DNA of 64,000 nt. Source: a virus. Under the pieces are notes generated by a model. That model saw only the letters and a program-made list of their open reading frames with translations. It was not told where the DNA came from and did no database searches. The DNA lies in IMG/VR virus record IMGVR_UViG_3300009594_000003, positions 21,652 through 85,651 of that record; one strand, written 5' to 3'. Positions 8,766-28,176 of the stretch are shown here, one piece after another. Each line of letters opens with the position of its first letter. Position 1 is the stretch's first letter. The position numbers and the translations under genes were made by a program.

Positions 8766-8766
8766 T

Positions 8767-10032: not shown

Positions 10033-10068
10033 CTACATCAGGCTTCTAGATTCCCCGAATTAGGCCAC

Positions 10069-10096: not shown

Positions 10097-10142
10097 GCTC
10101 GTAGCGGTTTGTGGCAACAGTGTTCTCTGAGGAGACCAAGAA

Positions 10143-11381: not shown

Positions 11382-11411
11382 CGATCTAGCTGGTCCTAGA
11401 AAGGACTAGCA

Positions 11412-11834: not shown

Positions 11835-11849
11835 CGGGACAGTTGAAAG

Positions 11850-12097
11850 AAAATCGAAGACGCATGGAGCCAGTTCCAGAACCAAAACGGCAGATGTGCT
11901 ATTAGTGGGGTCGAAATCAAGTTGGTCAGAAACTATAGCACTGCTCCTAGAAGGAAGCACCAAACAGCATCACTAGACAGGATTGACAGCACTAAAGGCT
12001 ATGTCAAAGAAATGTGGCCTGGGTGCATAAAGCGGTACAACAAATAAAGTGGAACTTCACGCTCTCAGAACTCGTAGACTGGTGTGGTTTGATTTAG
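11850..12097 (+). pseudogene. HNH homing endonuclease remnant
   Basis: QNGRCAISG...TASLDRIDSTKGYVK, frameshift, NVAWVHK...ELVDWC; paralogous to the HNH at 63341. Confidence 0.75.
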
Positions 12098-12107
12098 AGA
12101 CATCAAA

Positions 12108-13481
12108 ATGAGTAAGCTGGTTGTAGAAGTGTGTCGTGTTGAAAAGATCGAAGATCACCCAAACGCCAATCGTATGAAGTTGGCGACAATCAAGGGTTGG
12201 AAGACCTGTGTACGGCATGACCCAGAAACAGGCTGGACGCAATTCAAACCGGGTGATTTCTGTGTGTATTTTCCGCCCGACGCCATTCTGCCGCCTGCAC
12301 TCGCCAACGACAGACTTGGGATCATGAAGTATCTCAAGGAACTGCCGAAAAACGAGCTAGGTGAACGCACGCCTGGAGGCAGAGTTGCAGCCACGAACTT
12401 GCGGGGATACCCCAGCTACGGTGTCATCATGAAGATTGATCCCAAGTGGGGCGATGACCCGAACTGGCCGGTCGGCACCGATCTAGCTGAACACTTCGGT
12501 GTCACCAAGTACGAACCGCCGTTGGACTGCACCGATGGAGACGCTGAAAAGCAATGCCCTCGCTTCTACGATTACACTTCCATCGAACACTACGGCAACT
12601 TCCCCGCTGCGTTCGATGCCGGTGAAGAAATTATTCTGACCGAAAAGGTCCACGGCAAGAACTGCCGAATGGGTCTGTGTCTGGACACAGATGAGAACTG
12701 CGTTCCGGGCTGGGTCTACATGTGTGGGTCGCACGACGTTCGCCGAAAGGAATGGTCTCCACAGAACCGCCGCTTCCAGGCTGCGGAGTTGATGGAGAGC
12801 ATGATCGTCAGCGAAAAGGCACCGCCACTCGGCACCATCTTCCTATACAACGGAAGCTGGTGGAAAGTAGAAGAATGCTACGAGCGTCCCGTCAAGTCGA
12901 TTCTGCTCGACGCCGAGGGCAAGCGGTACTTTGGGCCTGAAGAGATTCGGGCATACATCAAGACCGCTCGCTGCACGCAGGAAGGTGAGACGATCCTGCG
13001 GAAATCTGAATTCTGGGAGTTTCTAAACGACGGCGTAAAGGGCCTGCTGGAGTACATGCGGGACGAATATCCCTGGGATGGGAACAAGTTCAGCATCATC
13101 CTCTACGGCGAACTATACGGCAGTGGCGTTCAGGATATGACCTACGGTATGAGGACCAAGGGTTTCAGGGCCTTCGACCTTGCCTTGAACAACCTCTATC
13201 TGGATTTCGCCGTCAAGGTAGACCTGTTCAAGCGGTTCGGCATCGAGATGGTGCCGATTCTGTACCAAGGACCGTTTTCCCAGGAAGTGGTCGAAAAGCA
13301 CACCAGCGGCCCGACTACCCTCTGTGAACCATCAGCGATCAAGAGTGGTTTCAAGGGGCGGGAAGGCGTGGTGATCTTGCCGACCAAGGAACGGCTCAGT
13401 CCTGTGATCGGAAAACGCTGCTGCCTGAAATCAGTGTCTACCGATTACCTCGCCCGGTCTGGCGGTACTGATTTCCACTAG
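12108..13481 (+). CDS. ATP-dependent RNA ligase (DRB0094-like)
   Basis: IEDHPNAN N-terminal domain, motif I TEKVHG, YGELYG, FRAFD, REGVV, LKSVS..YL. Confidence 0.85.
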   Translation: MSKLVVEVCRVEKIEDHPNANRMKLATIKGWKTCVRHDPETGWTQFKPGDFCVYFPPDAILPPALANDRLGIMKYLKELPKNELGERTPGGRVAATNLRGYPSYGVIMKIDPKWGDDPNWPVGTDLAEHFGVTKYEPPLDCTDGDAEKQCPRFYDYTSIEHYGNFPAAFDAGEEIILTEKVHGKNCRMGLCLDTDENCVPGWVYMCGSHDVRRKEWSPQNRRFQAAELMESMIVSEKAPPLGTIFLYNGSWWKVEECYERPVKSILLDAEGKRYFGPEEIRAYIKTARCTQEGETILRKSEFWEFLNDGVKGLLEYMRDEYPWDGNKFSIILYGELYGSGVQDMTYGMRTKGFRAFDLALNNLYLDFAVKVDLFKRFGIEMVPILYQGPFSQEVVEKHTSGPTTLCEPSAIKSGFKGREGVVILPTKERLSPVIGKRCCLKSVSTDYLARSGGTDFH

Positions 13482-13497
13482 GATTTTCCCTGGTTTC

Positions 13498-13528
13498 GAG
13501 CGGGCCTGCCTCACGGCAGGCCCGCTCT
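13498..13528 (+). terminator. hairpin/terminator
   Basis: GAGCGGGCCTGCC-TCAC-GGCAGGCCCGCTC. Confidence 0.65.
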
Positions 13529-13547
13529 CTTGACACCTGAATTCAGG

Positions 13548-14210
13548 ATGTCTAGAATTGCGACGGAGGTTGGGCGAGGCGTTTATGCCGGGTCTTTCGA
13601 CCCTCCGACTCTGGGACACATATACGTCATCGACCAGACCGCACGGCTCTTTGACGAGTTGATCGTTGCCGTTGGCGACAACCCTGAAAAAAAGTTTTCT
13701 GAACGCAGCAGGATAGATATGCTGAAAGAGAGCATCCTGCTTTTGCAGCAACGTCTTCAAGGCGACCATCCCATCGAGAACATCCGAGTCGATCATTTCC
13801 GTAATCGGTTTCTCATTGACTACGCCAAAGAACAAAACGCAAAGTATATCATTCGAGGAATCCGCAACTCCCAGGATTTCGAGTTTGAGAAAGCAATGCG
13901 GTATCTCAATGCCGACCTCACGCCAGGGATAACAACCCTGTTCATTGTCCCTCCACGAGAGTTGGCTGAAATCAGTTCCAGTGTTGTGAAGGGGGTGTGT
14001 GGACCGGAGGGCTGGCAGCGTGTTGTCCAGTCTATGGTCCCACCCCCGGTCTGCTCAGCAAGTGCACCGTCAAAGACGTGGATGAGGAAGGCTAGCTCAC
14101 TTGTGAGCCGAAGCCCGATAACGAAGTTCTCGCCGTTCAGATCGGCGAGGACCACGCCGGGCCGGACGGTTTCACCCTCATCGGTCAGTGGGGTGATGAA
14201 CGAATCGTAG
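13548..14210 (+). CDS. coaD: pantetheine-phosphate adenylyltransferase, probably damaged at both ends
   Basis: YAGSFDPPTLGH, IIRGIR..DFEFE, ISSSVVK; homology appears to end at VPPPV (~14050). Confidence 0.8.
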   Translation: MSRIATEVGRGVYAGSFDPPTLGHIYVIDQTARLFDELIVAVGDNPEKKFSERSRIDMLKESILLLQQRLQGDHPIENIRVDHFRNRFLIDYAKEQNAKYIIRGIRNSQDFEFEKAMRYLNADLTPGITTLFIVPPRELAEISSSVVKGVCGPEGWQRVVQSMVPPPVCSASAPSKTWMRKASSLVSRSPITKFSPFRSARTTPGRTVSPSSVSGVMNES

Positions 14211-14296
14211 ATGGAAAGCAGTGCTTCCTGCAATACGGTATTGCGGGGACTACGTACTGCAAAGCGTTACTAACCCCAACGACCGATGGATCGTGA
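14051..14296 (+). pseudogene. 3' remnant of an unknown gene fused to coaD
   Basis: alternative frame LLSKCTVKDVDEEG*LTCEPKPDNEVLAVQIG...TTDGS* reads as protein with one TAG at 14093. Confidence 0.4.
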
Positions 14297-14381
14297 AGCG
14301 TGGCCTCTACTTCTCCGACTATCTTCTTGGCAGAAACACTCAGAAAATCTGCTGCCTAGAAATACAACCTCCGCTACTCTA

Positions 14382-14416
14382 ATAAATGACGGCGTGGTTT
14401 CCACGCCGTCATTTAT
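14382..14416. terminator. hairpin
   Basis: ATAAATGACGGCGTGG-TTT-CCACGCCGTCATTTAT. Confidence 0.65.
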
Positions 14417-14431
14417 GTTTTTGGAGGTTGA

Positions 14432-15169
14432 ATGAAAGGTATTATTCTTGCAGGAGGTCTCGGCACACGCCTGCACCCTTTGACAAGGGTTACGAACAAG
14501 TGTTTGTTGCCGATCTACAACAAGCCCATGATATACTACCCGATTCAGAATCTAATCGATTCGGGTATCAACGACATTCTGCTCGTGTGTGGCGGTAATG
14601 CTGCCGGTGAATTCCTGAGAATCCTTGGGAATGGCGAAGAATTCGGCATCAAGCATCTACACTACACATATCAGAAGGAAGCGAGCGGCATTGCCCACGC
14701 TCTGGGATTGGCGAGAGAATTCTGTAACGGTCAGCCAATGACCGTAATGCTAGCAGACAACATTCTAGAGAACCCCGTTCGGGAACAAGTGCAGGAATTT
14801 TCGGCCAACCCTGTCGGAGCGAAAATCTTCCTCACCAAAGTTGCAAACCCATCTGCCTACGGCGTAGTTGAAGCTGATACCGAGGGGAATATCCTCAGTA
14901 TAGAAGAAAAACCGAAGTATCCAAAGTCGGACGAGATTGCAATTGGACTCTACATGTACGATAATACCGTCTGGGAGTTCATTGACCAGCTAAAGCCATC
15001 TGCTCGTGGCGAGCTAGAGATCACCGACTTGAACAACCACTTCCTCCGAAATGGCAGACTCAAGGCACATCGAATCAACGGATGGTGGGCTGATTGCGGA
15101 GAGAACTTCGACATGTATTTAGACGCTTCTAACAAAGCGAGGGAATTATGGCATAAGAAGCGACGGTAA
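14432..15169 (+). CDS. glucose-1-phosphate thymidylyltransferase-like (RmlA/SpsI family)
   Basis: GIILAGGLGTRLHPLT, KPMIYYP, EEKP, SARGELEITD. Confidence 0.9.
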   Translation: MKGIILAGGLGTRLHPLTRVTNKCLLPIYNKPMIYYPIQNLIDSGINDILLVCGGNAAGEFLRILGNGEEFGIKHLHYTYQKEASGIAHALGLAREFCNGQPMTVMLADNILENPVREQVQEFSANPVGAKIFLTKVANPSAYGVVEADTEGNILSIEEKPKYPKSDEIAIGLYMYDNTVWEFIDQLKPSARGELEITDLNNHFLRNGRLKAHRINGWWADCGENFDMYLDASNKARELWHKKRR

Positions 15170-15257
15170 AACCCAAAAAGGACTGGTAGGATTTAATGTT
15201 TCTAGGCATAATAGGCGTGCAAGTAGTTGTACTAGCCTATTTGCTATGGGTGTGATA

Positions 15258-15364
15258 TGTTGAAATCCGAAGCCTTGCAGATGTTGAATGAAAAAGTGTG
15301 TTCTTGTACGAAGTGCAATGAGCTAGCTCGTACAAGAACAAACCGTTTTTAGGGAAGGCAACCC
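15258..15364 (+). pseudogene. family-4 uracil-DNA glycosylase, 5' half
   Basis: LNEKVCSCTKCNELARTRT, frameshift, TVFREGNP. Confidence 0.7.
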
Positions 15365-16729
15365 TCGCTTCTCTAATTAACCGTCCTTCTTGGACGGTTT
15401 CTTCTTTTCTGGCTATACAACTCCCGCATTAGGCACTTCAAGCCATACCTCTCCCTCTCCGCACATCTTTTTCTCGGTCAAATAATGTAAGCAGTGTCGT
15501 TTACTAGAAGAAGGAAAACCGGAGAATATGACAACATGCGTTAAAATAATCAGGAAATCCAATGTTTCCGACCCGCTAGAACTGGTTAATCAAAACATGG
15601 TGATAGAAGATGGGTTGGAACATGGTAGGAGAAATAACCTTGAACGGCGTGCCTCGCTGGGATATGCTCGATGAGGCAAATAACCTGATTTCCAAATTAA
15701 AAACTACCAAGCCAAAATATGTTATTTACCGTGACCATGATAGAATAGGCTTCAAGAATCCCGCCGAAATCGGTTTCTTCATTACCTCCCTGAAACAACT
15801 GGATATGAAGATTATCACCGCCAACGACGAGCAGGTGGTCGATATGACCAACCTCGCTTCGACCATGCGGACGGTGCAAAACCAGTTAGCTTCATCAGCC
15901 GAGATTGAGAAGAAGGGATATAGGACACAAATTGCTCGCCGGAAGACTATCGAGAAGAAGTCTAGTCCTGGCAAGATGTGTGTCTATGACTATGACTGGA
16001 TAGTATATAACCGTGAAGGCACTTTCAAATATAAGGTCATCTACGAAGGTTACAAAAAATGCGAAGGACGGCACTGGACTGACCCACCGAAGAATACCAG
16101 AAGTCATGCCAATGCGGTGGAAAGAATATCCAGACGGCAAACGAGAAGCATATCACGACCAGTGGGTTCAAAATAGTCACAACTGGATATTGCTCACGTC
16201 CGTTCCCATGATGGAAAAGGGCGACCGGAAGACTGAGATTGTTAATGTTGAGCGTGCCAAAGTTGTGAAAGATATATTTGACTTGGCTGACACTCCTAGT
16301 TACAAAACTCCTCACGAAATTGCCTGCATCTTCAACAATAAGGGCATCAAGAGCATGAGTAGGAAGTGGGATGCCAAGACAATAAAGTGCATCTTGTCAA
16401 ACCCCATATACAAAGGGTATCCAGTCGATAATCAAACTTCAAAAGCAAAGACCGCTCGGTTGAATACTAATATAGTTACCGTGCCACCGACCAAGGAAGA
16501 ACGAGCAGCAATACGCATTGTAGATATTGCACAATGGGACCGAGTGAATAAATATCTGCGAGATAATCAGACAGGATATAAACATTTTCGCCGTGCTAAT
16601 CTCGGTGACTTTTGGGCAAAGTGCTTTTTGTTCTGCGGTAACTGCCAAGATATTTTTTACGTCGCCAATAGCACTAAATGGAAACCTTCCAAGAACTATC
16701 GCTGCGAGAAGTGTGGTGCCATAAAATCC
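15365..16729 (+). mobile_element. recombinase-only integrative element inserted in UDG
   Basis: bounded by CC dinucleotides; removing it restores [16 protein letters not shown] in frame. Confidence 0.7.
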
Positions 16730-16738
16730 CAATGCTAA
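15528..16738 (+). pseudogene. large serine recombinase, frameshifted twice
   Basis: IIRKS catalytic motif, DHDRIG, WDAKTIKCILSNPIYKG recombinase domain, LFCGNC...YRC Zn ribbon across three segments. Confidence 0.75.
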
Positions 16739-16835
16739 CGTCCTTTTTCTAGGTGAGGCTCCCGGTCAAAATGAAGACGGAACCGGAAGGCCCTTCGTCG
16801 GTAGGGCAGGTAGTTACTAGACGACATCATTTAAT
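16730..16835 (+). pseudogene. family-4 UDG, continuation (truncated)
   Basis: [27 protein letters not shown], frameshift, LLDDII. Confidence 0.8.
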
Positions 16836-16859
16836 CATCTGCTGGGGCGACCGAATCGA

Positions 16860-17600
16860 GGATGTAACCATACGCTGAAAACTCGTAGTGGATTGACCCG
16901 TACTGGCCTTGTGGCAAGGCTCTTATCAAGTCGGAGAATTATGTCCTCGTTCCTGATTACTTTTCTCCCGATGTTCGCTGACCCATTACAATCAGCATTG
17001 ATTACACGACCGTCACTGGAACGATAACGCCCACGACCCATGCGAGTACCAAAAAAACTCATGCTTCACACCAGCAACGTACTCTGGGAGCGGATTACGG
17101 TCAAAGAAACTGGCTTTGCTGGTGTAGAACTCCTCCGTGAAAATAACCTCAAGTTGCACGATAAACTTGGAAACATGGTGGAAGTAGTTTTCCAGTCGGA
17201 AGTACCATTTCTTACTTTCACGCTTGGTCTTGTGCCTGTTGAAATGCTTGTTGATGCTCTTGCAAATGCGACCGTATGGGAGAAGTCTGATCGGAAGTTA
17301 TCATAGCAAGGTTATTCAACCCAATGTCAATACAGTTGTTCGGGACAGCTTGTTCGTATTGTACGTCCACGATGAAGCCAAATCGCTTGGGTGTAATGAC
17401 CACTTATTTGTAGGCTCTGGTACTTTGGATACTGAAGCAGTCGTTGGTCGGCGTTATGGTGTTCGGTTTTTGCTTAACCTTGTTCTGTCCTCCTTTGATG
17501 GTTTCATTATAGAAGATGACCTGAGCCAGTTTGTCCTTGTAGTAGGGTGGCATGGGCATCTTGACGAACTTACTCTTGTCCTTTGACCACTTAAAGAAAG
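16860..17600 (-). mobile_element. tnpB: degraded IS200/IS605-family TnpB
   Basis: fragments IDIGLNNLA (RuvC-I) and INADCNGSANIGRK (RuvC-III) in broken frames. Confidence 0.75.
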
Positions 17601-17613
17601 TGGCAGAGCGAGC

Positions 17614-17641
17614 TTTACAACAGGTCGAGCGTGACTACAAT
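17614..17641 (+). promoter_or_regulatory. early-type promoter of the NAD cluster
   Basis: TTTACA-N16-TACAAT; AGGAG RBS downstream. Confidence 0.65.
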
Positions 17642-17685
17642 ACGGGTGTGGTCAGGACAACTCAACAAATAGGAGAGAATGAACC

Positions 17686-18561
17686 ATGCGAAAGGTCCAT
17701 CTGGTCATCATCGACCCGCAGAATAGTTTTTGCAAAGTCGTTCCCCAAACCGACCAGCAGAAACTCCACGACGGCGAACTGTGCGTCACCGGGGCCTGGG
17801 AGGATATGGAACGGGTCGGCGACATGATCCGACGCCTGGGCAAGAAGCTGACGCAGATTCACATCACCCTCGATTCCCACCACCAGTGGCACATCGCTCA
17901 CCCCTGCTGGTTCAAAGACAGCAAGGGTCAGCCTCCGGCCCCCTTCACCACCATGCGAGTAGAAAACGGGGTGATCATCGGTGCCCAATTCGATGCCAAG
18001 GGCGGTCTCCATGACGTGGGCGAGTATACGCCGACTCTCTTCGGCGAAACCTACAAGTGGACCTACAAGTATCTCACCGAACTGGCTTTGGGCGGTCGCT
18101 ACCCGCACGTCATCTGGCCGTATCACTGTTTAATCGGCACGCCCGGTCACAACATCGTCGCCCCGCTGGAAGACGCCATCCTCGAATGGGAGCGTGTCGC
18201 TCGGCAGACCTGCGACAAGATCACCAAGGGGTCATGTCGTTTCGTGGAACACTTCTCGGCAGTTCGTGCCGAAGTAACCTACGACCAAGACCCCAACACC
18301 CAACTCAACACCGACTTCGTACAAATGCTCGGCCACGAGGCCGACGAGGTTCTGATCTCCGGTGAGGCCCTATCTCACTGTGTCGCCAACACTTTCCGAG
18401 ACGTTGCCAACGAACTCGGCGACGACTTCGTGAAGAAGTGTGTGCTGCTCGAAGACGCCTCCAGCAACGTCGGCAACTTCGAGAGCTACGGCAAGAAATT
18501 CGTCACCGAGATGAAGGCTCGTGGAATGCGAGTCTCTACCACCAAGAAATACCTCAAGTAA
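17686..18561 (+). CDS. pncA: nicotinamidase (isochorismatase-family cysteine hydrolase)
   Basis: IIDPQNSF, DSH..H, WPYHC, KG, GEALSHCV; next to pncB. Confidence 0.75.
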   Translation: MRKVHLVIIDPQNSFCKVVPQTDQQKLHDGELCVTGAWEDMERVGDMIRRLGKKLTQIHITLDSHHQWHIAHPCWFKDSKGQPPAPFTTMRVENGVIIGAQFDAKGGLHDVGEYTPTLFGETYKWTYKYLTELALGGRYPHVIWPYHCLIGTPGHNIVAPLEDAILEWERVARQTCDKITKGSCRFVEHFSAVRAEVTYDQDPNTQLNTDFVQMLGHEADEVLISGEALSHCVANTFRDVANELGDDFVKKCVLLEDASSNVGNFESYGKKFVTEMKARGMRVSTTKKYLK

Positions 18562-18615
18562 CCGGACTGACTATTCGCCCCATAGTCTTTCCCATATACC
18601 AGAAAGGAACTAGTC

Positions 18616-19347
18616 ATGTCTGATGAACAGGCCCTTGAACAGCACAAGATCGGGCACTTCGGTTTCAGTGCCGTCCACATTGGCAATCTCGGTGCGGCGG
18701 AATACACGCTCGTCACCATCGTCTGCGATCGCAGCGGCAGTACCAACGGCTTCCAAGCCGATATGGAAGCTGCTCTGAAGGAAGTCATCAAGGCGTGTCA
18801 GTTCTCGCCACGAGCCAACAACCTTCTGATCCGTGTCCTAACGTTCGAGGACTCGCACAGCGAATTCCACGGCTTCAAGCTGCTGGAGCAGATCAACCTC
18901 GATGACTACAACGGGGCATTGGCACCGGACGGCTACACCGCCTGTTACGACGCCATGCTCGACGGCATCGAGGCAACCGACAACTTCGGCCAGCAGTTGG
19001 ATGCCCAGGATTTCAACGTCAACGCTATCCTGTTCTTCATTACAGATGGCGATGACAACCGTTCCACGAACGGTACGACACAAATCAAGCAGGCACTCAG
19101 TAAGGCGGTGAAATCCGAGGCCCTGGAGAGCATCGTCACCATCCTGATCGGCGTGAACGTCATCGATCCGCACTTCAAGGAGCGGCTGGAGCAGGCTCAC
19201 CAGCAGTGTGGTTTCACACAATTTATCGCTTTGGGCGATGCGAACAAGAAGACACTGGCAAAACTCGCTCAGTTCGTCAGCCAGTCGATCTCCTCGCAGT
19301 CTCAGGCGTTGGGAACAGGCGGTCCTTCCAAGAGCATCAACTTCTGA
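18616..19347 (+). CDS. vWA-domain protein (TerY-like)
   Basis: MIDAS DRSGS, TACYDA, FITDGDD. Confidence 0.8.
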   Translation: MSDEQALEQHKIGHFGFSAVHIGNLGAAEYTLVTIVCDRSGSTNGFQADMEAALKEVIKACQFSPRANNLLIRVLTFEDSHSEFHGFKLLEQINLDDYNGALAPDGYTACYDAMLDGIEATDNFGQQLDAQDFNVNAILFFITDGDDNRSTNGTTQIKQALSKAVKSEALESIVTILIGVNVIDPHFKERLEQAHQQCGFTQFIALGDANKKTLAKLAQFVSQSISSQSQALGTGGPSKSINF

Positions 19348-19390
19348 ACTCTGTCCGTTTCGGAGTTGATTCTGACCACGCTGTTCGGAG

Positions 19391-19429
19391 CAAGACGCCC
19401 GGCCCGACATGTCGGGCCGGGCGTTCTTG
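19391..19429 (+). terminator. hairpin/terminator
   Basis: ACGCCCGGCCCGAC-AT-GTCGGGCCGGGCGT-TCTT. Confidence 0.65.
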
Positions 19430-19431
19430 TA

Positions 19432-19459
19432 TTTACAGGCCAAAAACCAACACTACAAT
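19432..19459 (+). promoter_or_regulatory. early-type promoter for pncB onward
   Basis: TTTACA-N16-TACAAT. Confidence 0.65.
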
Positions 19460-19480
19460 GGTCGTGAAAGAAGGACCGCA

Positions 19481-20665
19481 ATGCTCAAATCGATTCTAGA
19501 TACCGACCTGTATAAGCTGACGATGCAGCAGGCGGTATTGGAAAAATATCCTGATGCCCACGCCGTCTATACTTTCACGAACCGAAGGAAGTCCGACAAG
19601 TTCCCTGATAAGTTCGAGGACTACTTGGTTTCCGGCCTCATGGCCTTAACTAAGGTGGCGTTGTCGCCCGGTGAGGCAACATGGCTCGCCACGGCTTGCC
19701 CCTGGCTCAAGTCCTCCTACATCGAGTACCTCCGCAACTACCGTTTCAACTCTTCGGAACTGTTTTTGAAAGTCAGGAATGACGATCTCACTATCACCAT
19801 CAACGGACCTTGGCACCGAACTATTCTGTGGGAAGTGCCGATGATGGCGATCATCAGTGAACTCTATTTTCAGCATGTAGTCACGGATTGGACGCACGAA
19901 GGGCAAGAAGAGAAGATCGCAAAGAAGGGTGAACTTTTTAAGGCAGAGCAGATACGTTGGTCGGACTTCGGTACTCGTCGCCGTCGCTCCTACAAATCAC
20001 AAGATCGTGTCGTCAACATCTTCAAAGGCAACCCATTCTTCAGCGGCACAAGCAACGTCCATCTAGCCCACAAGTACACTGTCCGGCCAATCGGAACTAT
20101 GGCCCACGAATGGATTATGGGCCACGCCGCTCTCTGCGGTCTGCGGTACGCCAACCGCTACGCCCTGCGTGCGTGGAACGATGTGTATCACGGCAACCTG
20201 GGGATTGCTCTTACCGACACCTACGGCACACCAGCTTTCTACAAGGACTTCGATGGCGTGTTAGCTCGTCTTTATGACGGCGTTCGGCATGACAGCGGTA
20301 GTCCCTTCGAGTTTGCCGATGCTGCGGTCGCTCATTACAAATCACTCAACATCAACCCAGCCCACAAGACCATCGTGTTCAGTGATAGTCTGGACCCTCC
20401 ATTGGCAGTTCAGCTTGCTCAGCGGTGCCGTCAACTAGGAATCAACGCTGTTTTTGGTATTGGCACGAACCTCACGAATGATTATGATAGTGGCAAGCCG
20501 CTGAATATAGTCATCAAACTGCGTTCACTGAACGGTGTCGAGGTCGTTAAACTGAGTGACGATCTCAACAAGGCGACCGGCGATAATGACGCCGTGCGTG
20601 TCGCCAAGTGGACGTTCTGCAATACACCGCTCGATAAGCCAGGAGTTCAGAGCTACAAGAGGTAA
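19481..20665 (+). CDS. pncB: nicotinate phosphoribosyltransferase
   Basis: DTDLYKLTMQQAV, DFGTRRR, GTMAHE, RHDSG, GIGTNLTND, KLSD. Confidence 0.93.
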   Translation: MLKSILDTDLYKLTMQQAVLEKYPDAHAVYTFTNRRKSDKFPDKFEDYLVSGLMALTKVALSPGEATWLATACPWLKSSYIEYLRNYRFNSSELFLKVRNDDLTITINGPWHRTILWEVPMMAIISELYFQHVVTDWTHEGQEEKIAKKGELFKAEQIRWSDFGTRRRRSYKSQDRVVNIFKGNPFFSGTSNVHLAHKYTVRPIGTMAHEWIMGHAALCGLRYANRYALRAWNDVYHGNLGIALTDTYGTPAFYKDFDGVLARLYDGVRHDSGSPFEFADAAVAHYKSLNINPAHKTIVFSDSLDPPLAVQLAQRCRQLGINAVFGIGTNLTNDYDSGKPLNIVIKLRSLNGVEVVKLSDDLNKATGDNDAVRVAKWTFCNTPLDKPGVQSYKR

Positions 20666-20670
20666 CTGAT

Positions 20671-22680
20671 ATGAACGACTTTGGCCTCGCACGCATCACC
20701 GTTGTCAGCCCGGAAGTCAAGGTTGGCAACCCAACATTCAATGCTTTCCAGGTTGCCGATGCGGTCAAGAAAAACCCTGGATCGCAAATTTATCTTTTCC
20801 CTGAGTTGGGGATTACCGGCTATACATGTGCCGATCTCTTCAACTCGGCTACACTTCTCGAACGGACTGTGGATAGTCTAGTCTGGCTCAGCGAGCAGAC
20901 GTATATGAATGACGCCTTCGTTGTGGTCGGTTTACCTGTCAAAGCAGACGGCAGCCTCTACAACTGTGCCGCCGTTATTCACGCCGGGAAAATCCAGGGT
21001 CTCATCCCCAAGCAACATCTCCCGACGTACAAAGAATTCTATGAACGTCGTTGGTTTGCCCCAGCTACCGGCATGGAATCCAGGGCCATCAAGTTCGGGA
21101 ATCTCTACATTCCTTTTGGTATCGATCTACTTTTCGAGGATGAAAACCACCCCAACATCCTCATTGGAATCGAGATTTGCGAGGATGTGTGGACTGTCAT
21201 CCCGCCCAGCAGCTATCAAGCCTTAGCCGGGGCAACGATCCTCCTCAACCTCTCTGCCAGCAATGAAACAGTCGGCAAGGCCTCATATCGCCGTGATCTG
21301 GTTCTTAACCAATCTGGCCGCTGCATCGCTGCATATGCTTATGCCAGTTCTGGCTGGACAGAATCTACCACCGATCTAGTTTTTGGTGGTCACTGCATGA
21401 TTGCCGAGAACGGTTTGATGCTTACGGAAACCCCCAAGTTTGAGCGGTCGGCAATGATTACTGCGGATGTTGATGTCGAAAAGCTGGTGCTGGAACGTGA
21501 ACGCACTTCGAGCTTTGCTGACAACAAACGTCGGCAGGCTGTTCCGTTCCGCATCTTCCGAATAGCTCTGGAACAGCGGGGCGACGATAGGCTTATGCGG
21601 AGCGTGAATCCTCACCCCTTCGTTCCGCATAACACCAAAGAACTAGACGAACGCTGCAAGGAGATTTTTGGCATCCAGACTCGTGGCCTTGCAAAGCGAA
21701 TCGAAACAGCCAATGTCAACCGCATGGTAATTGGTGTCTCCGGTGGTTTAGACTCTACGCTCGCTCTCTTGGTTGCAGCCAAAGCGTGTGATCTAGTTGG
21801 CAAGCCGCACAGTACCATCCTGGGGATTACCATGCCGGGTTTCGGCACAACAAGCCGGACCAAGAACAACGCCATCAAGTTGATGGAAGCATTGGGCGTC
21901 GAGCAGAAAACCATCGACATTCGCCCGGCTACCCTTCATGCCCTGTGTGATATACAACACAGGCCATTCGGGATTAAACTTGAAGCTCACTACCCGTATC
22001 CAGGCAGTGCGGTTGAAGCGTTGCAGGCACAACTTGCCAACCTGCCACACGACAATCGCCACGATCTGGTGTTCGAGAACGTCCAGGCTAGACTCAGGAC
22101 GTTCCTGTTGATGTCGCATGGTTTCGTCGTCGGCACAGGCGATCTATCGGAGCTTGCCCTGGGCTGGTGTACGTACAACGGCGATCACATGTCGATGTAC
22201 AATCCCAACTGTAGCATCCCAAAAACACTGGTGAAGTTCCTTGTGGAATATGTTGCAGAAAACGAAGTGAGAAACTTTGTTAACAGCGACAACACTCTGG
22301 TGGACATCTGCAAGACAACAATTTCTCCCGAACTGTTGCCAGCGGGTGCGGATGGCAACATTCTACAGTCCACCGAGGATGTTGTCGGCCCCTACGAACT
22401 GATTGACTTCTTCATGTTCTGTATGATCCGGTGCGGATACGGGCCGAAGAAGACTTTGTACCTCGCCGAACACGCTGAGTTCAATACAAAGTACACACGA
22501 GACCAACTGAAAAATTGGTTGAAGGCTTTCTATTTCCGGTTCTTCTCCTCGCAATTCAAGCGGTCTTGTGTGCCTGACGGCCCGAAGGTCGGGTCGGTTT
22601 CTCTGTCGCCGAGAGGCGACTGGCGTATGCCCAGCGATGCTGATGTATCAATTTGGGTCAGCGAGGTTGACGAAGCATGA
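20671..22680 (+). CDS. nadE: glutamine-dependent NAD+ synthetase
   Basis: nitrilase domain FPEL/K/EICED plus GVSGGLDST, ENVQAR, GTGDLSE, FKRSCVPDGPKVG. Confidence 0.95.
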   Translation: MNDFGLARITVVSPEVKVGNPTFNAFQVADAVKKNPGSQIYLFPELGITGYTCADLFNSATLLERTVDSLVWLSEQTYMNDAFVVVGLPVKADGSLYNCAAVIHAGKIQGLIPKQHLPTYKEFYERRWFAPATGMESRAIKFGNLYIPFGIDLLFEDENHPNILIGIEICEDVWTVIPPSSYQALAGATILLNLSASNETVGKASYRRDLVLNQSGRCIAAYAYASSGWTESTTDLVFGGHCMIAENGLMLTETPKFERSAMITADVDVEKLVLERERTSSFADNKRRQAVPFRIFRIALEQRGDDRLMRSVNPHPFVPHNTKELDERCKEIFGIQTRGLAKRIETANVNRMVIGVSGGLDSTLALLVAAKACDLVGKPHSTILGITMPGFGTTSRTKNNAIKLMEALGVEQKTIDIRPATLHALCDIQHRPFGIKLEAHYPYPGSAVEALQAQLANLPHDNRHDLVFENVQARLRTFLLMSHGFVVGTGDLSELALGWCTYNGDHMSMYNPNCSIPKTLVKFLVEYVAENEVRNFVNSDNTLVDICKTTISPELLPAGADGNILQSTEDVVGPYELIDFFMFCMIRCGYGPKKTLYLAEHAEFNTKYTRDQLKNWLKAFYFRFFSSQFKRSCVPDGPKVGSVSLSPRGDWRMPSDADVSIWVSEVDEA

Positions 22681-23528
22681 ACACCGACTCATTCTATGCC
22701 AAAGGTTCTACCCACCGTGAGAACCAGGACTACGCCACTCACGGCGAGAGAGAGGGGCAACCATTCGCTATCATTTCAGATGGATGTTCGTCTGCTCCAC
22801 GCACTGATTTCGGGGCACGGATTCTGGTGCAAGCCGCCGTGCAATATCTCGGCGTGGCTGGATACAATGATGATTCATTTAGCCATAGTACGATCAATAC
22901 GGCCCGTATTTGGTCACATGCCCTGGGCCTGCCTGATGATTGCCTCTGTGCTACGCTGCTCATGGCTATAGTTGCAAACGTAGATGTAGGAATGCCGCAC
23001 GTTGACCAGCATATGTACAAGGTCTTCATCAGTGGCGATGGCTTTGTGGTTGCTCGGCACAAGGACCGCATGGAAATCCACGAATATAAATTTGCTCGTG
23101 GTGCCCCATGCTACCTTCGCTACAGCCTGGACCCCAAGATGTCCAAGGACTATTGGGCAAAGTTCGGCGATGAGGTCACACATCGCATCTACATGATCGA
23201 CAACAACGGAAAATCCGACTACCAAAAGGAGACGAAGAAATATCCTGCCGCTCCGTTCTTCTTTAAGTTGGAGTTTCCCGTCTCCGACTACCTTTGGGTC
23301 GCAGTGGTCAGCGACGGCGGCGACTCTTTCTTGGAAACGGTGGACCACGGCACCGGCCTAGAACCAACCGATGTTCCGGCCAGTACCGTACTATTTGAGC
23401 TATTCAACTTCAAGAATTATCAAGGCGAGTTCGTCCAGCAACGGTGCAGTAAGGCTTTCAAGGAGTTCGGCAAGAAACGCTGGCAGAACGCCGACGACAT
23501 TGCTGTTGGGGTGATTGCGAGGGACTGA
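22677..23528 (+). CDS. PP2C-like protein phosphatase
   Basis: H..NQD, ISDGCSS, VSDG, DDIAV. Confidence 0.85.
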   Translation: MNTDSFYAKGSTHRENQDYATHGEREGQPFAIISDGCSSAPRTDFGARILVQAAVQYLGVAGYNDDSFSHSTINTARIWSHALGLPDDCLCATLLMAIVANVDVGMPHVDQHMYKVFISGDGFVVARHKDRMEIHEYKFARGAPCYLRYSLDPKMSKDYWAKFGDEVTHRIYMIDNNGKSDYQKETKKYPAAPFFFKLEFPVSDYLWVAVVSDGGDSFLETVDHGTGLEPTDVPASTVLFELFNFKNYQGEFVQQRCSKAFKEFGKKRWQNADDIAVGVIARD

Positions 23529-23529
23529 T

Positions 23530-24147
23530 ATAAGAATCGGACTTCTAGGCGAGGCCTTTGACCCAATTACCTGTGCCCACATGGACATGGCTAGAGTTGG
23601 ACTAGAAGTGTTCGATGAAGTCTAGCTCATGCCATGTAATACACATCCTTGGGACAAAGAAATGGCCCACGGCTCAGACCGTCTTCATATGATTGAGTTG
23701 GCGACTCAACACACCCCCAAAATAAAACCGTGCCCCTACGAACTAGAAATGGCACCAAGTTCGTACACCTACGATGTGGTGTGGAGCATGAGACATAAGG
23801 TGCGGTTCATGCCGATTGAATTCAGCATCATCGTTGGCATGGACAATGCCAACAAAATCAAGGAGTGGCATCGCTGGCAAGAACTGATCGAAATGATCCC
23901 TTTCCTTGTAGTAAAGAGAAGGGGCATCGAACAACAAACTGATTAGTTCCTGAAAGCTCCTCATATGTTCAAGGACATCGGGACGGTGACGGGCACACTG
24001 CAAACCAACTGCCTAGCCGTACCAATTAGTTCAACACTGGTACGGCGAACCATCAGAGAGGGCGGCGATGCCCGCCCATTTCTGCACTTGGACGTGTGGA
24101 ACTACATCGACAAGAAGGGACTCTACAAGAAAGGTCCAGATGAATAA
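23530..24147 (+). pseudogene. nadD: nicotinate-nucleotide adenylyltransferase, disrupted
   Basis: IRIGLLGEAFDPITCAH...FDEV*LMP...IVGMDN...W..WQEL...TD*FLK...ISSTLVR...VWNYIDKKGLY; ATA start; TAG at 23623 and 23944. Confidence 0.85.
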
Positions 24148-24958
24148 ATGTTGCGTCTACATGGTGAATCAACATCCGCTGTACATGAACATGGCTTGTA
24201 ACAGCATAGCCATGTTAAGGAAACATTCGGCCATTCCAGTTCGTGTACTGCTGATTACCGATTTCGCACGCACCACCTTCTCTAATACACGGAACTACCC
24301 CGGCTTGGAACTTGATGTGTCCGATGATGCTGTGAAACGGATGTCGGACAGGTTGGTTGTTAAGTGCGAGGAAATGGGAGCGGAAGTAAAGGTACTGAGT
24401 CCACACGCCGCCGAAACAGACTACATTCATTGCAACCAATCCTACATGGCTACGGAATGCCCAGAGGAACTGGTCATGAAAATGGATGCCGACACCTTCC
24501 TCTTCGGCGACATCGAGCCTGTTTTCAACGCATACGATGGATACGATGTAGTCGCCCTGGAAGCGGACTGGTTCAAGAAAGAAAAAGAATGGAAGCCTGA
24601 ATGGTTCGGGAATCAGACGCCACTCTCTACAGCGGTGATTCTGTTCCGAAACGAAACGGCCAAACGCTGGGGAGAATTCTTGCCAGGGATGTGTCGGGCG
24701 TATGCCGAGGGCGACTCTGACGCCGCTATCTGGGCACGAAACAGAAAAATCTTGTATTTGCGGGACGAACTTTCCTTAACACCATTCGTCATCTGCAATA
24801 CACTGAAATGGAGGCTGTTCAGGGAAGAACACTGTTGCCAGATCAGTGCCCCGGAGTTTTGGAAAAACATCATTGCACACGCCTTCGGCTACAATTGGCT
24901 GAAGGCTTATCAGATGCTCACAGGGAGCAAAGACTTGCCGTTGAGGGCCGCTCAATGA
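24140..24958 (+). CDS. putative GT-A fold glycosyltransferase
   Basis: MDADT DxD motif, RDE, late His. Confidence 0.55.
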   Translation: MNKCCVYMVNQHPLYMNMACNSIAMLRKHSAIPVRVLLITDFARTTFSNTRNYPGLELDVSDDAVKRMSDRLVVKCEEMGAEVKVLSPHAAETDYIHCNQSYMATECPEELVMKMDADTFLFGDIEPVFNAYDGYDVVALEADWFKKEKEWKPEWFGNQTPLSTAVILFRNETAKRWGEFLPGMCRAYAEGDSDAAIWARNRKILYLRDELSLTPFVICNTLKWRLFREEHCCQISAPEFWKNIIAHAFGYNWLKAYQMLTGSKDLPLRAAQ

Positions 24959-26694
24959 AGCTCTACTTGAAGGGAAGTGGCACCGAAATCAACCTGGATC
25001 AGCGGGACTTCATTGCCAAAGGCGGCGAGGGCAGCATCTTCGGCAAGGGGGCGATTGCCTACAAAGTCTATGACGACCCGCACAAGATGATCCCCGTTGC
25101 CAAGATCGGCGAACTAGCCGTCCTCGATCATCCGAACATCATCAAGCCAGACGTTGTGTTGCTAGACGGCAAGAACAAGCCCATCGGCTACACAATGCGA
25201 TTGCTGAACAACACTCACGTCCTCGTCTCTTTGTTTACCAAAGCCTTCCGCTTGCGTAATGGTATTGACGACGCCATGATGCTCCATCTGGTCAGGGAAC
25301 TTCAAAAACTCGTGGCGTTCGTTCACAGCAAACGTATCCTCATCGTTGACCTGAACGAGATGAACTTCCTCACGGATGCCGGGTTCAAGGACATCTACGG
25401 CATAGATGTCAATTCATACCAAACGCCCGGCTTTCCAGCGACAGCAATTATGGATACGATTCGTGACCGCCACATGACGGGCCACAATTTCAACCAGAAC
25501 ACCGACTGGTTTAGCTGGGCCGTTGTTGCCTTTCAAATGCTGATTGGCATTCATCCGTATAAGGGATCGCATCCCGACTTTGAGACGATGCCCAAGGACG
25601 AGCGACTGAATGCTCGTATGACTAGAAACGTCTCGGTCTTTCACAAGAATGCTACATGGCCCAAGGTGTGTCAGCCATTCGATGTCATCCCGCCAACGCT
25701 CAAGGGCTGGTTCGTTGACGTGTTTGAGCGTGGACATCGTGGCAACCCGCCTCCCAATTACGCCGCCGTGGTTGTGGCGGTCGCTACTGCGATTCAAGAT
25801 ATTGTCGGCACCGACCTGTTCGACATTCAGGAACTACAAACCTTCGCCGAGGAAATCGTGCGGGTATGCTCTACGGCCAACACCACGGTAGTTTTCACCA
25901 AAGATAATTTAGTCATTGGCAAGAAGCTCTACCCGCTGCCGTCGCCAACGTGCAAGATCGCTTTTGCCCCGAAGACCGAGAACCCCATCGCCTTCTGGAT
26001 TGACAACGGCCTCAAGGCGTTAGATGTAGTTTCCAACAAGCCGTTGTCCGTCCCAGCAACCGGCACCGCCCTCCTAGAATGCGACGGTCGTGTGTATGTC
26101 CAGAATGGGACATACCTCATGGAGTTTATGATCGGCGAGTTCCCGACCGGCGTGAAGATTCTGCCAAAACAGGTCGGCAAAGTTATGGATGTGCTGGGTG
26201 CCACGCAAATCTACGACGGCGTGATCTTGCAAAACGTCCTGGGAACTTTCTACGCCACGATCTTCCCGGTGAGCGGCCAGAGCCATCAGGTCAAGCTCAC
26301 CGAGTTGTCCAAGTACCAGATCATCGACGTCAAGTACGAGAATGGTGTCCTGGTGGTAGTTGGCACAAAGCTAGTCTCGAAGCGGTCAATGGCAACCAAG
26401 AGCAAGTACGACCGTTTCGTGTTCCGCATGTCGCCGGACTACAAGAATTACGACTTCTGGACCGCCGAGGACGTAACCTATACCGGAATCAACTTCACCG
26501 TCGCCGATCACGGCGTAGCGGTACTGATGAACGAGGAGGAAAAACTGGAAGCCTTCTCGGAGACGAAAGGATCATCGACTACGCCCAAGAGATTCGATGA
26601 TGATGCCCTTGACACCGACATGAAGTTGTGTCACCGTGGCAGCAAGATTCTGTTCGCCAAGGGGAAGAAACTGTATTCCATTTCCATGAAGTAG
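24955..26694 (+). CDS. Ser/Thr protein kinase (TerY-P type) with C-terminal beta-rich domain
   Basis: KGGEG, AYKVY, IVDLNEMN, IDVNSYQ, TDWFS, GIHPYKG. Confidence 0.85.
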   Translation: MKLYLKGSGTEINLDQRDFIAKGGEGSIFGKGAIAYKVYDDPHKMIPVAKIGELAVLDHPNIIKPDVVLLDGKNKPIGYTMRLLNNTHVLVSLFTKAFRLRNGIDDAMMLHLVRELQKLVAFVHSKRILIVDLNEMNFLTDAGFKDIYGIDVNSYQTPGFPATAIMDTIRDRHMTGHNFNQNTDWFSWAVVAFQMLIGIHPYKGSHPDFETMPKDERLNARMTRNVSVFHKNATWPKVCQPFDVIPPTLKGWFVDVFERGHRGNPPPNYAAVVVAVATAIQDIVGTDLFDIQELQTFAEEIVRVCSTANTTVVFTKDNLVIGKKLYPLPSPTCKIAFAPKTENPIAFWIDNGLKALDVVSNKPLSVPATGTALLECDGRVYVQNGTYLMEFMIGEFPTGVKILPKQVGKVMDVLGATQIYDGVILQNVLGTFYATIFPVSGQSHQVKLTELSKYQIIDVKYENGVLVVVGTKLVSKRSMATKSKYDRFVFRMSPDYKNYDFWTAEDVTYTGINFTVADHGVAVLMNEEEKLEAFSETKGSSTTPKRFDDDALDTDMKLCHRGSKILFAKGKKLYSISMK

Positions 26695-26703
26695 GAGACT
26701 CAC

Positions 26704-27190
26704 ATGCACCCATCAGAGTACATCGAATTTCTCAAAACCGGCAATGGTGCCAAGGTTGACGGTCTGTGTGGCCGGATTATCCGGGGCAAGACGCCGTAGT
26801 GCTTCTCTCGCCTCTCCGATGATCCGAACCGCAAGGTAGTCATGCTCACCGATGCGGAGGACTTGCAATCGTTGCTGGGAAAGAATAGCTATCAGATGCT
26901 CATTACCATCGGTCATCATCCCGACCACATCAACCAGTGTCTCAGCGAAGGCAAGAGCTACAAGATCGTGGTGTTCCCGGCCAGCAGTGCCCTCGAAGGC
27001 ACTTGGGATAGTCGTGAAGCTCGGCTCCCAGGTTTACCCCGACGTGGCCCCAGAATTCGGACGGCTCCCATTCTCGGTCATCGAACAACTGGCCGGTTAT
27101 CACTTCAAGGATGTCGATGATCCGACACATCCGAAGTTCATGTCGCACGAGCGGTTCCAAGCCCTGATCGTTCAGCCTTCACACCCCTAA
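26704..27190 (+). pseudogene. hypothetical gene with nonsense codon and frameshift
   Basis: AGGAG RBS; MHPSEYIEFL...GKTP*CFSRLSDDP..., frame change near 27005. Confidence 0.55.
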
Positions 27191-27215
27191 CGCCCCGGCC
27201 AAGGGCCGGGGCGTT
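27189..27215 (+). terminator. terminator closing the NAD/kinase cluster
   Basis: AACGCCCCGGCC-AAG-GGCCGGGGCGTT. Confidence 0.7.
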
Positions 27216-27259
27216 TCCGTTTACATAAGCTGTTTCTGTACTAGAATGATAAATAGAGC

Positions 27260-27946
27260 ATGATCGATTTCGGCTTCAAGGAGTACCTTCAACTACAAGA
27301 GATGGCGGCGAGAAAAAGCCTCGCTAGAAGTCTTGAGAAGTGGATGGACAACATCGACAAGCCGGTTGCTGTTTTAACTGCGTTCCGAAGCGAACATGAC
27401 CTGGAAACGAATCGAAAGAGAAACGAGGAACTGGTCAAGGACTTGACGGCTGCCGGTTTGAGCCATTACCCTGTAACAGGACAAGGCCAGGAGATCAAGC
27501 GATGGGCATTCCTTTTCCGAGTAATCGAACCAACGAAAGAAGAGTCCTTTGTGGTCCAGCCACGAGGCGAAATGAGCGATACGGTATTCGTTAGCACTAT
27601 CCAGGGGTTGATGAACACCTACAACCAGGATTTCGTGGCAATGAAATTACCAAGCAGTCCTGATGCTTTTCTACTTGGGAGAAATGGGAATAGAGAACCA
27701 TTGGGTCGAAGTGCCCATCCAAGAAGAGAAGAAAACCCGTTTTACTCAGAATTGCTCAAAGGAGTAAGAACGCCGCCCGAACAAATGAGCGGATGGGAAA
27801 GAACGGGAGAAAGAAGTCTGGTACGTCGATTCATCAACTGGCTGAGGGGCAGGTCTCATATGAACCACCCAGTCCCAGCCGATGAAAGAGGCGGCAGAAG
27901 ATTCGTAGTGGGCGATGCACCCAAACACCCACAGGGAAATGCGTAA
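27260..27946 (+). CDS. phage hypothetical protein (LTAFR...N..RN..L...EESF)
   Basis: FGFKEYLQLQE leader; TAAATA 4 nt upstream. Confidence 0.7.
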   Translation: MIDFGFKEYLQLQEMAARKSLARSLEKWMDNIDKPVAVLTAFRSEHDLETNRKRNEELVKDLTAAGLSHYPVTGQGQEIKRWAFLFRVIEPTKEESFVVQPRGEMSDTVFVSTIQGLMNTYNQDFVAMKLPSSPDAFLLGRNGNREPLGRSAHPRREENPFYSELLKGVRTPPEQMSGWERTGERSLVRRFINWLRGRSHMNHPVPADERGGRRFVVGDAPKHPQGNA

Positions 27947-28176
27947 TGTTGAACCTCCTGAAGATGCCCTACCTTTGGTTGTTGGAAGTCCGCCTCATGC
28001 ACTACGTAGGTCGCTGGAATCATTATCGCAATCGAGTCCTTGACGAACAAGCTGCGTCGGTGAATAACAAGATCAAGATCGCCAAAAAGGTTCTCAATGG
28101 TCCTCCGCTGGAATTGAGCCGACGCCACTACGAATACGCCCGCTTAAAAAACCGTGGCGAGGAACCAAAGCCATGA
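27946..28176 (+). CDS. hypothetical protein
   Basis: overlapping stop/start coupling on both sides. Confidence 0.55.
   Translation: MLNLLKMPYLWLLEVRLMHYVGRWNHYRNRVLDEQAASVNNKIKIAKKVLNGPPLELSRRHYEYARLKNRGEEPKP

Follow-up and report, generated by a model that had tools for sequence, protein, structure and literature searches.

The window analysed here is a 64,000-nucleotide stretch of DNA, bases 21652–85651 of the 85,651-bp IMG/VR virus record IMGVR_UViG_3300009594_000003 (completeness 17% by CheckV), and the element in question is a run of genes for NAD+ salvage at positions 17614–27215. The plus strand of this region encodes, in order, a PncA-like nicotinamidase, a vWA protein, PncB, a glutamine-dependent NadE, a PP2C phosphatase, nadD, a glycosyltransferase-like (GT-like) gene, a kinase and a small pseudogene (Table 1). 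Each gene named in the original prediction, a reading of the sequence alone, was located on this one strand, and the tight packing it described from pncB onward takes the form of a 5-nt gap between pncB and nadE followed by overlaps of 4, 14, 8 and 4 nt. T4-like tail sheath, tube, baseplate and sheath-stabiliser genes are present in the stretch, and the kinase protein of the window is also recorded on a 463,644-bp contig, which sets the genome size to at least 463 kb. These two observations identify the stretch as a fragment of a huge, uncultured myovirus. One public metagenome run containing the stretch was found and is labelled groundwater, and a megablast search of GenBank phages returned no match to window positions 17000–28000.

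Table 1. Genes and predicted signals of the NAD locus, in window coordinates
Feature	Position	Strand	Basis or remarks
Promoter-like site P1, TTTACA-N16-TACAAT	17614..17641	+	Upstream of the PncA-like gene
Predicted long-form nicotinamidase, PncA-like, 291 aa	17686..18561	+	PDB profile, catalytic residues, AlphaFold2 (AF2)/Foldseek
vWA protein, 243 aa	18616..19347	+	Weak vWA-TerF-like and VWA_2 matches; intact metal ion-dependent adhesion site (MIDAS); Ser/Gln-rich C-terminal tail
Terminator-like hairpin, then T-rich stretch	19394..19425	+	14 pairs, 11 GC; -36.3 kcal/mol, z -6.2; ends unit 1
Promoter-like site P2, TTTACA-N16-TACAAT	19432..19459	+	Unit 2
PncB, nicotinate phosphoribosyltransferase	19481..20665 (open reading frame opens 19409)	+	NF003704, TIGR01514, Pfam NAPRTase and NAPRTase_N
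NadE, glutamine-dependent NAD+ synthetase, 669 aa	20671..22680	+	NF002730; CN_hydrolase and NAD_synthase domains
PP2C-type Ser/Thr phosphatase, 283 aa	22677..23528	+	PF13672, 36.7 vs cut-off 24
nadD pseudogene	23515..24147	+	Single frame, TTG start, in-frame TAGs at 23623–23625 and 23944–23946
GT-like gene, 272 aa	24140..24958	+	ESM-Atlas feature match to GT8-like clusters, 0.97, a lead only
YegI-like Ser/Thr kinase (residues 1–270) with C-terminal beta-propeller (289–579)	24955..26694	+	AF2, Foldseek, hhalign
Small pseudogene	26704..27190	+	In-frame TAG 26797–26799, frame change near 27000
GC hairpin closing unit 2	27190..27214	+	-25.9 kcal/mol, z -4.0
Promoter-like site P3	27220..27247	+	Directly after the closing hairpin

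Gene products and transcription units of the NAD locus

The first gene product is a divergent, long-form predicted nicotinamidase. A profile built from five phage homologues retrieved nicotinamidases as its top PDB matches, with yeast Pnc1 (2h0r, E = 6e-14) followed by the Mycobacterium tuberculosis, Pyrococcus and Acinetobacter enzymes. The AF2 model has a predicted local distance difference test score (pLDDT) of 95.9, and its ten top-ranked Foldseek matches in the PDB are all nicotinamidases (E = 8e-14 to 3e-9) with target TM-scores mostly of 0.77–0.82. The catalytic residues D10, K181 and C232 and the metal ligands D63, H65 and H147 are invariant among 42 sequences. A beta subdomain inserted at about residues 66–136 has no counterpart in the solved nicotinamidases.

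PncB and NadE are both intact and score above the curated cut-offs. PncB reaches 452 bits against NF003704 (cut-off 379) and 423 bits against TIGR01514, and NadE reaches 839 bits against NF002730 (cut-off 473). The true PncB start is probably the ATG at 19481, because the homologues align only from residue 25 of the longer open reading frame (ORF).

The gene for the remaining step, nadD, had been called disrupted. It is broken, by two TAG codons that stand in frame where Trp is conserved; a frameshift was considered and rejected, since the gene is one continuous frame. The nadD fragments match NadD models, and nadD is an intact ORF in each of the four relatives aligned with it (L003, L005, L006 and L009). 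The first TAG aligns with Trp in all four relatives and the second in three of the four, and each TAG is a single G-to-A transition from TGG. A second assembly (Logan) of the probable source run, which is not independent of the source, is identical over positions 22600–25100 with a word depth of 379 and zero variants at contig level, and this identity rules out a single-assembler slip in nadD. Six of 27 confident genes end in TAG, including the kinase, whose end coincides with the end of its homologues. Recoding of TAG was rejected on this count and because the small pseudogene has a further in-frame TAG, the third, that aligns with Q, D or S. Neither the window nor the 85-kb contig yielded a tRNA or suppressor gene in a search. 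The two in-frame TAGs, the use of TAG as a genuine stop and the lack of a tRNA in 85 kb together argue that nadD is a pseudogene.

No other adenylyltransferase for nicotinate mononucleotide (NaMN) or nicotinamide mononucleotide (NMN) was found in the 85-kb contig, in line with the earlier proposal that host NadD would be needed. A CTP_transf_like protein at 13530–14207 was examined as a substitute and rejected; it is CoaD-like, scoring 144 against TIGR01510 (cut-off 103), and its PDB matches are all phosphopantetheine adenylyltransferases.

Three further genes encode signalling proteins. The vWA protein scores 19.1 bits against vWA-TerF-like (cut-off 29.4, E = 0.0016), a weak match. Among 45 sequences its MIDAS residues D38, S42, T108 and D144 are invariant, S40 is retained in at least 90%, and the C-terminal tail is conserved as FVSxSISSQSQALGTGGPS. 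The PP2C residues D18, D35, G36, D121, D213, D273 and D274 are invariant in 37 sequences. In the AF2 model of the kinase (pLDDT 89.8) the kinase domain leads into a beta-propeller; the best full-length Foldseek matches are to the LRRK2 kinase-WD40 region (E = 4e-10), and WD40 propellers are also matched. The kinase domain aligns with Escherichia coli YegI (hhalign probability 97.9%, E = 6e-13). In 53 sequences the catalytic residues D132, N137 and D151 are invariant and K37 is present in at least 90%. Against the PADLOC library the matches are marginal for PP2C (PDC-M21C, E = 3e-5) and the kinase (PD-T4-6, E = 6e-4), and the vWA protein has none.

For the GT-like gene neither Pfam nor the PDB gave a match, and tblastn found none in 127 viral loci or 42 genome loci; the gene is specific to this phage and lies outside the conserved cluster. 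The small pseudogene at the end of the region has intact homologues of 165–168 aa.

The motif TTTACA-N16-TA(C/G)AAT has four copies in the window, at 17614, 19432, 27220 and 58368, compared to zero copies expected from 100 shuffles, and three of the four copies bound the NAD gene region. The copies at 17614 and 19432 would be the two promoters that the original prediction called early-type. The closing terminator it described corresponds to the stable hairpin at 27190–27214, which was not called in a terminator scan of the window; the stronger internal hairpin at 19394–19425 had been overlooked. Each hairpin just precedes a motif copy. The internal hairpin between vWA and pncB and the placement of the motif copies suggest that the region forms two transcription units, one of the PncA-like and vWA genes and one running from pncB through the small pseudogene. 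The fourth motif copy (TTTACA-N16-TACAAT, 58368–58395) is far from the cluster and lies upstream of or within an ORF at 58279–58629.

Distribution of the cassette in phages and bacteria

A PncB scan of IMG/VR returned 154 relatives, of which 80 were kept. Few of these share further cluster genes; a large gut-phage clade has pncB only, and a NadD-like gene stands beside pncB in 38 of the 80 loci. The kinase gave a different picture. Its family comprises at least 719 clusters at 90% identity, all of about 560–580 aa, on contigs of up to 652 kb. A kinase scan yielded 47 viral loci, which were searched with the window proteins by tblastn (E ≤ 1e-4, within 10 kb). PP2C is present in 47 of them, vWA in 44, the PncA-like gene in 43, pncB in 14, nadD in 11 and nadE in nine; some of the nadE matches have weak scores, and the kinases are identical within five pairs of loci. 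Counts within 10 kb are lower bounds for co-occurrence in the genome; on one 548-kb contig (L013, L095) pncB is about 30 kb from the cassette. These frequencies point to a conserved unit of PncA-like, vWA, PP2C and kinase genes, in that order, to which pncB, nadE and nadD are variable add-ons. The vWA, PP2C and kinase genes had been listed as neighbours of an NAD cluster; their presence is borne out, and their frequency in the 47 loci argues against a bystander role.

PP2C directly precedes the kinase in most loci, and the position of the add-on genes varies. They lie between vWA and PP2C in the window, L086–088 and L090, between PP2C and the kinase in L102 and L107, upstream of pncA in L110 and L118, and downstream of the kinase in L114, L116 and L128. 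The cargo of the vWA–PP2C gap also differs, with a 188-aa ORF in L082 (8563–9129) and a 250-aa ORF in L005 (11191–11943), and this gap may be an insertion hot spot.

Distant huge-phage contigs (L006/L088 and L086/087) and L129 show the gene order of the window again, so the cluster is not a one-off. L129, a locus from the scan of bacterial genomes described below, lies on a 546-kb contig and keeps the order with a partial vWA and without a PncA-like match. Its tail sheath is 61–67% identical to that of the window, and it is a mis-binned huge phage. At 411–2898 of L129 a helix-turn-helix protein and a PD-(D/E)XK endonuclease stand in the place of the PncA-like gene, and the cassette may have been disrupted there by an inserted element.

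The nearest relatives of the window locus are L082 and L083, with kinases 71–72% and PncA-like proteins 79–81% identical and 67–70% nucleotide identity over pncA-vWA and the kinase. An unrooted kinase tree of 78 rows was built; of 90 sequences, 12 with fewer than 500 aa were excluded. In this tree the window joins L082 and L083 (support 100) inside a six-row clade (support 96) that also holds L129, L084 and L090, and in the adjacent five-row clade the add-ons stand in the window order in four of the five rows. Parsimony on this tree suggests that the seven-gene order is older, that L082 and L083 lost the add-on and that the window phage is eroding its copy. Along the kinase tree pncB switches between present and absent at least 10 times. 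The triad-linked phage PncBs, those found with vWA, PP2C and kinase, fall in a single 25-row clade (support 100) apart from the gut-phage pncB(-nadD) clade.

The cassette is also found in bacteria. A kinase scan of species-representative genomes gave 42 loci, many on short contigs, with the kinase in 42, PP2C in 35, vWA in 30 and the PncA-like gene in 28, and with the four genes in the same order as in phages. Most are contigs of metagenome-assembled genomes labelled Pyrinomonadaceae/Blastocatellia, Armatimonadota or Capsulimonadaceae. In one bacterial order (around genome G001) the kinase occurs in 21 of 71 genomes and the long PncA-like protein in 48, among them every one of the 21 kinase carriers. 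Of ten kinase loci in this order, six read pncA-vWA-PP2C-kinase-pncB. All five of its chromosome-level genomes have a single PncB, which adjoins the kinase in four, and a single PncA-like match. At eight kinase-free loci of the same order (L191–L198) no triad was found; pncB adjoins pncA in seven of them and is about 2.2 kb away in L193.

Because the order is pncA-vWA-PP2C-kinase-pncB in the one case and plain pncA-pncB where the kinase is absent, the triad is an insertion inside a bacterial pncA-pncB salvage operon. This insertion is the strongest evidence found that the triad works with the salvage enzymes. It likewise marks the phage cassette as a shared or captured cellular module. A prophage origin of the chromosomal copies was rejected; a tail-sheath relative is absent from G001 and G003, and a distant one lies about 3 Mb away in G002. 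The flanks are syntenic between related chromosomes and not island-like (L177, L178 and L185).

In the Armatimonadota locus L166 (992–1966 and 9686–11437) a gene resembling phosphoribosyl pyrophosphate (PRPP) synthetase flanks the cassette and an NH3-type NAD synthase follows it, with a Fic protein and a C5 methylase nearby. The predicted functions of these neighbours are a further link to NAD and PRPP. No Nudix/NrtR-like gene was found among 12 flanking ORFs from six sources (the window and five loci) or in the 85-kb contig.

Genes surrounding the locus

Upstream of the cluster, at 15610–16738, a serine-recombinase gene is split across two frames, with a resolvase-like N-terminus and a Recombinase domain (PF07508). 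Directly 3′ of the cluster, at 27220–27946, is an S-adenosylmethionine (SAM)-lyase-like gene (PF23780, 31.3 bits, cut-off 28) with its own copy of the promoter motif. The SAM-lyase family is known for anti-restriction, and this is a possible anti-restriction gene. An RNA ligase (TIGR02306-like), the CoaD-like phosphopantetheine adenylyltransferase and an RmlA-like sugar nucleotidyltransferase stand in tandem at 12108–15166; CoaD is unusual in a phage.

Elsewhere in the window are a GlpX-type fructose-1,6-bisphosphatase (40068–40991), a CTP synthase (61727–63337), a class-II glutamine amidotransferase-like protein (59244–60428) and an M14 carboxypeptidase (50672–52105). A 128-aa ORF at 38707–39090 has as its sole match the Cas12f1-like/TnpB TNB domain (PF07282, E = 2e-9) and is probably a TnpB fragment. 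Three gp19-like tail-tube paralogues follow one another at 46836–48656. To the left of the window, bases 1–20000 of the contig encode a protein like inosine monophosphate dehydrogenase (IMPDH) or guanosine monophosphate reductase, a glutamate dehydrogenase, a class-III aminotransferase, a SpoU methylase, a LAGLIDADG endonuclease, a Dam-like methylase, a subtilase and a trypsin-like protease. Several of the enzymes encoded there use NAD(P).

Relation to known systems and interpretation of the locus

Depletion of NAD+ is one of the major ways in which bacteria fight phages, and most bacteria salvage nicotinamide mainly by the deamidated Preiss–Handler pathway. The phage pathways known to rebuild NAD+ under such attack are NARP1 (Adps and Namat) and NARP2 (Nampt and Nmnat) (bioRxiv 10.1101/2024.02.11.579819), and NARP3 (PnuC and NadR) (PMC13464706). 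As described in the available text of these sources, they are two-gene systems, amidated or based on ADP-ribose, that are experimentally proven against defences. The window locus resembles them in that phage genes would rebuild NAD+ from breakdown or salvage products; it differs in encoding a four-step deamidated route via nicotinate together with a signalling triad, and is known here from its genes. The available text of the NARP1/NARP2 preprint mentions none of PncA, PncB, NadE, nicotinic acid or Preiss (10.1101/2024.02.11.579819). The distinctness from NARP1 and NARP2 that had been claimed therefore holds, and NARP3 as described is likewise not deamidated (10.1101/2024.02.11.579819; PMC13464706). 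Pfam scans of all ORFs of the 85-kb contig, part of a genome of at least 463 kb, detected no NARP component family. The amidated route is the only one given in the accessible parts of two comparative surveys, one on jumbo phages and one on viral NAD systems.

The claim of a new pathway fares less well, since Preiss–Handler clusters in jumbo phages have already been reported in silico (PMC11662467). The accessible parts of that paper describe 174 jumbo phages with complete salvage or Preiss–Handler pathways by annotation, a pncB-nadD-nadE cluster in Kuafu_71 and a mention of phage pncA, and its supplementary Fig. S7 maps pncA, pncB and then a garbled label, nadE and either nadD or nadM, in phage Zhurong_5. 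The window has in common with these phages a large genome and the clustering of pncB, nadD and nadE with pncA, with function assigned from annotation. It differs in its dead nadD and in being built on a cassette shared with bacteria, and the accessible text of that paper, with one supplement, contains no mention of vWA, PP2C or the kinase (the word 'kinase' occurs 0 times in the supplement). In GenBank, PncB is annotated in the cultured jumbo phages Atu_ph07 and Phosso, and the kinase is found in four uncultured records only. The gene downstream of PncB in Atu_ph07 was considered as a NadD and rejected as not NadD-like. A search of the accessible literature found no paper joining a nicotinamidase or isochorismatase with vWA and PP2C. 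Relative to print, the new elements are the vWA/phosphatase/kinase cassette tied to a nicotinamidase and the add-on genes that come and go around it.

The triad itself has described counterparts. E. coli yegL-pphC-yegI encodes vWA, PP2C and kinase proteins, and PphC dephosphorylates YegI (10.1101/303594). TerY-P triads consist of a TerY-like vWA protein, a PP2C and a kinase that carries a zinc ribbon or, in the defence variant, an OB fold; they accompany restriction systems, and TerY-P-like modules are stand-alone anti-phage systems (PMC11090510). The phage genes share with YegL-PphC/YegK-YegI and TerY-P the order vWA, PP2C, kinase, the YegI-like kinase domain and the conserved PP2C acidic and MIDAS residues. 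Unlike in TerY-P, the C-terminal 290 residues of the kinase are modelled as a beta-propeller and not as a zinc ribbon or OB fold, and unlike in the available descriptions of YegLKI and TerY-P, the triad is embedded in a pncA-pncB operon. By analogy the cassette would work like a TerY-P/YegLKI triad, yet it is not classed as a member because of the propeller, the weak YegL likeness of the vWA protein and the marginal PADLOC matches. The plain bacterial pncA-pncB operons of L191–L198 have the same long-form nicotinamidase with pncB directly after it; they lack the triad, and the window has phage promoters in place of a repressor.

The reading we favour, with moderate confidence, is that this is a phage-borne bacterial Preiss–Handler salvage operon with a triad insert, to which NadE and NadD were added, and that it is gated by the triad and keeps up the NAD+ pool. 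The ancestral frame would have been pncA and pncB, with the vWA, PP2C and YegI-like kinase genes inserted between them, and this phage lineage would have added the glutamine-dependent NadE and NadD. Two phage promoters would drive the PncA-like and vWA genes and the pncB-nadE-PP2C-nadD-GT-kinase genes. The PncA-like protein would deamidate nicotinamide to nicotinate, which PncB would convert to NaMN. NaMN would be adenylylated by the NadD of the host, because the phage nadD carries two nonsense codons. NadE would then amidate nicotinate adenine dinucleotide to NAD+, so that the NAD+ pool is kept or restored during infection, and the phage would benefit from a general NAD+ supply or from defence against NADases. 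The four-enzyme deamidated route of the original prediction thus stands as a set of genes encoded together, with PncA-like, PncB and NadE intact; it does not stand as a complete phage-encoded route, nadD being dead. Most likely, reversible Ser/Thr phosphorylation by the triad gates either the step of the nicotinamidase or the flux through salvage, with the Ser-rich vWA tail and the kinase itself as candidate substrates.

Several observations weigh against this reading. The PncA-like protein falls under the Pfam cut-off for Isochorismatase (PF00857, 26.3 vs 27 bits) and far under that of the NCBIfam nicotinamidase equivalog (NF008623, 18.7 vs 174), and its extra subdomain of about 70 residues could alter the substrate. 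The vWA protein is only weakly like YegL (hhalign probability 28%) and TerF. The sole tie between the triad and the salvage enzymes is their co-location inside the operon. L082 and L083 are without pncB, nadE and nadD, as well as the GT-like gene, and together with the dead nadD this makes the extended route dispensable in this lineage.

It is somewhat unlikely that the locus is a dedicated counter-defence, a fourth, deamidating reconstitution pathway that undoes NAD+ cleavage by Thoeris, DSR, SIR2-HerA and TIR effectors. The nicotinamide produced by that cleavage is the predicted substrate of its first enzyme, NARP1–3 as described show phages restoring NAD+ in the face of such defences, the cassette is common among huge phages, and the SAM-lyase-like gene follows under its own promoter. 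Yet the same operon holds the only pncA and pncB of bacterial chromosomes, where it resembles housekeeping salvage, and the route needs four steps with ATP, PRPP and glutamine, one of which is dead here. The contig also encodes users of NAD(P) (IMPDH-like, glutamate dehydrogenase and epimerase), so a general supply explains the locus equally well, and the literature search found no test in print of this route against NADase defences. A more ambitious form of the favoured reading is doubtful for now. It casts the triad as a phospho-switch that senses NAD+ breakdown and gates the nicotinamidase, which together with PncB, NadE and phage or host NadD would make a regulated fourth, deamidated route that beats NADase immunity and would be the first physiological role for triads of the YegLKI/TerY-P type.

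The nadD gene is essential in bacteria, and nearly every host would supply the NadD step. This bears on the view that the Preiss–Handler add-on is a decaying remnant, disused and being lost, and that only the core of PncA-like, vWA, PP2C and kinase matters. The two nonsense codons in nadD, the nonsense codon and frame change in the neighbouring small gene and the disrupted serine-recombinase gene about 1 kb upstream of the cluster all fit such decay, as does the grouping of the window with L082 and L083, which lack the three add-on genes, inside clades that mostly keep them in the same order. The loss of NadD need not break the route where host NadD is near-universal, though, and both PncB and NadE keep their full length without a stop codon and exceed their family cut-offs by a wide margin, with their genes directly behind a motif promoter. 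We consider the remnant view improbable.

That the triad is instead the centre of a conflict system, a TerY-P-like defence, superinfection-exclusion or host-takeover switch with the nicotinamidase as sensor or effector and NAD+ synthesis incidental, is distinctly unlikely. The kinase is YegI-like and has an accessory-like distribution (21 of 71 genomes of one order), and the published triads accompany restriction systems or act alone against phages (PMC11090510). The PADLOC matches are marginal, however, the kinase ends in a propeller and not in the zinc ribbon or OB fold of the described triads, the triad lies inside a salvage operon between pncA and pncB, and the chromosomal flanks are syntenic.

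Expression of a functional nadD through TAG readthrough, by a suppressor tRNA or recoding, is very unlikely: both stops are TAG at conserved Trp positions, huge phages often carry many tRNAs and the part of the genome seen is 85 kb out of at least 463 kb, but TAG ends six of 27 confident genes, including the kinase with its homologue-matched end, no tRNA lies in the 85 kb, the third in-frame TAG does not align with W, and a single transition from TGG, an ordinary nonsense mutation, accounts for the pattern.

In the accessible literature the proven phage reconstitution routes number three, and none is deamidated. At this locus huge phages carry the deamidated route on a conserved cassette that links a nicotinamidase with a kinase, a phosphatase and a vWA protein, and the dead nadD and the absence of pncB, nadE and nadD from the sister phages mark the dispensable parts. 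If the triad controls salvage, it would place NAD+ recycling under post-translational control, of which no description was found in print, and would give a function to YegL-PphC-YegI-like triads.

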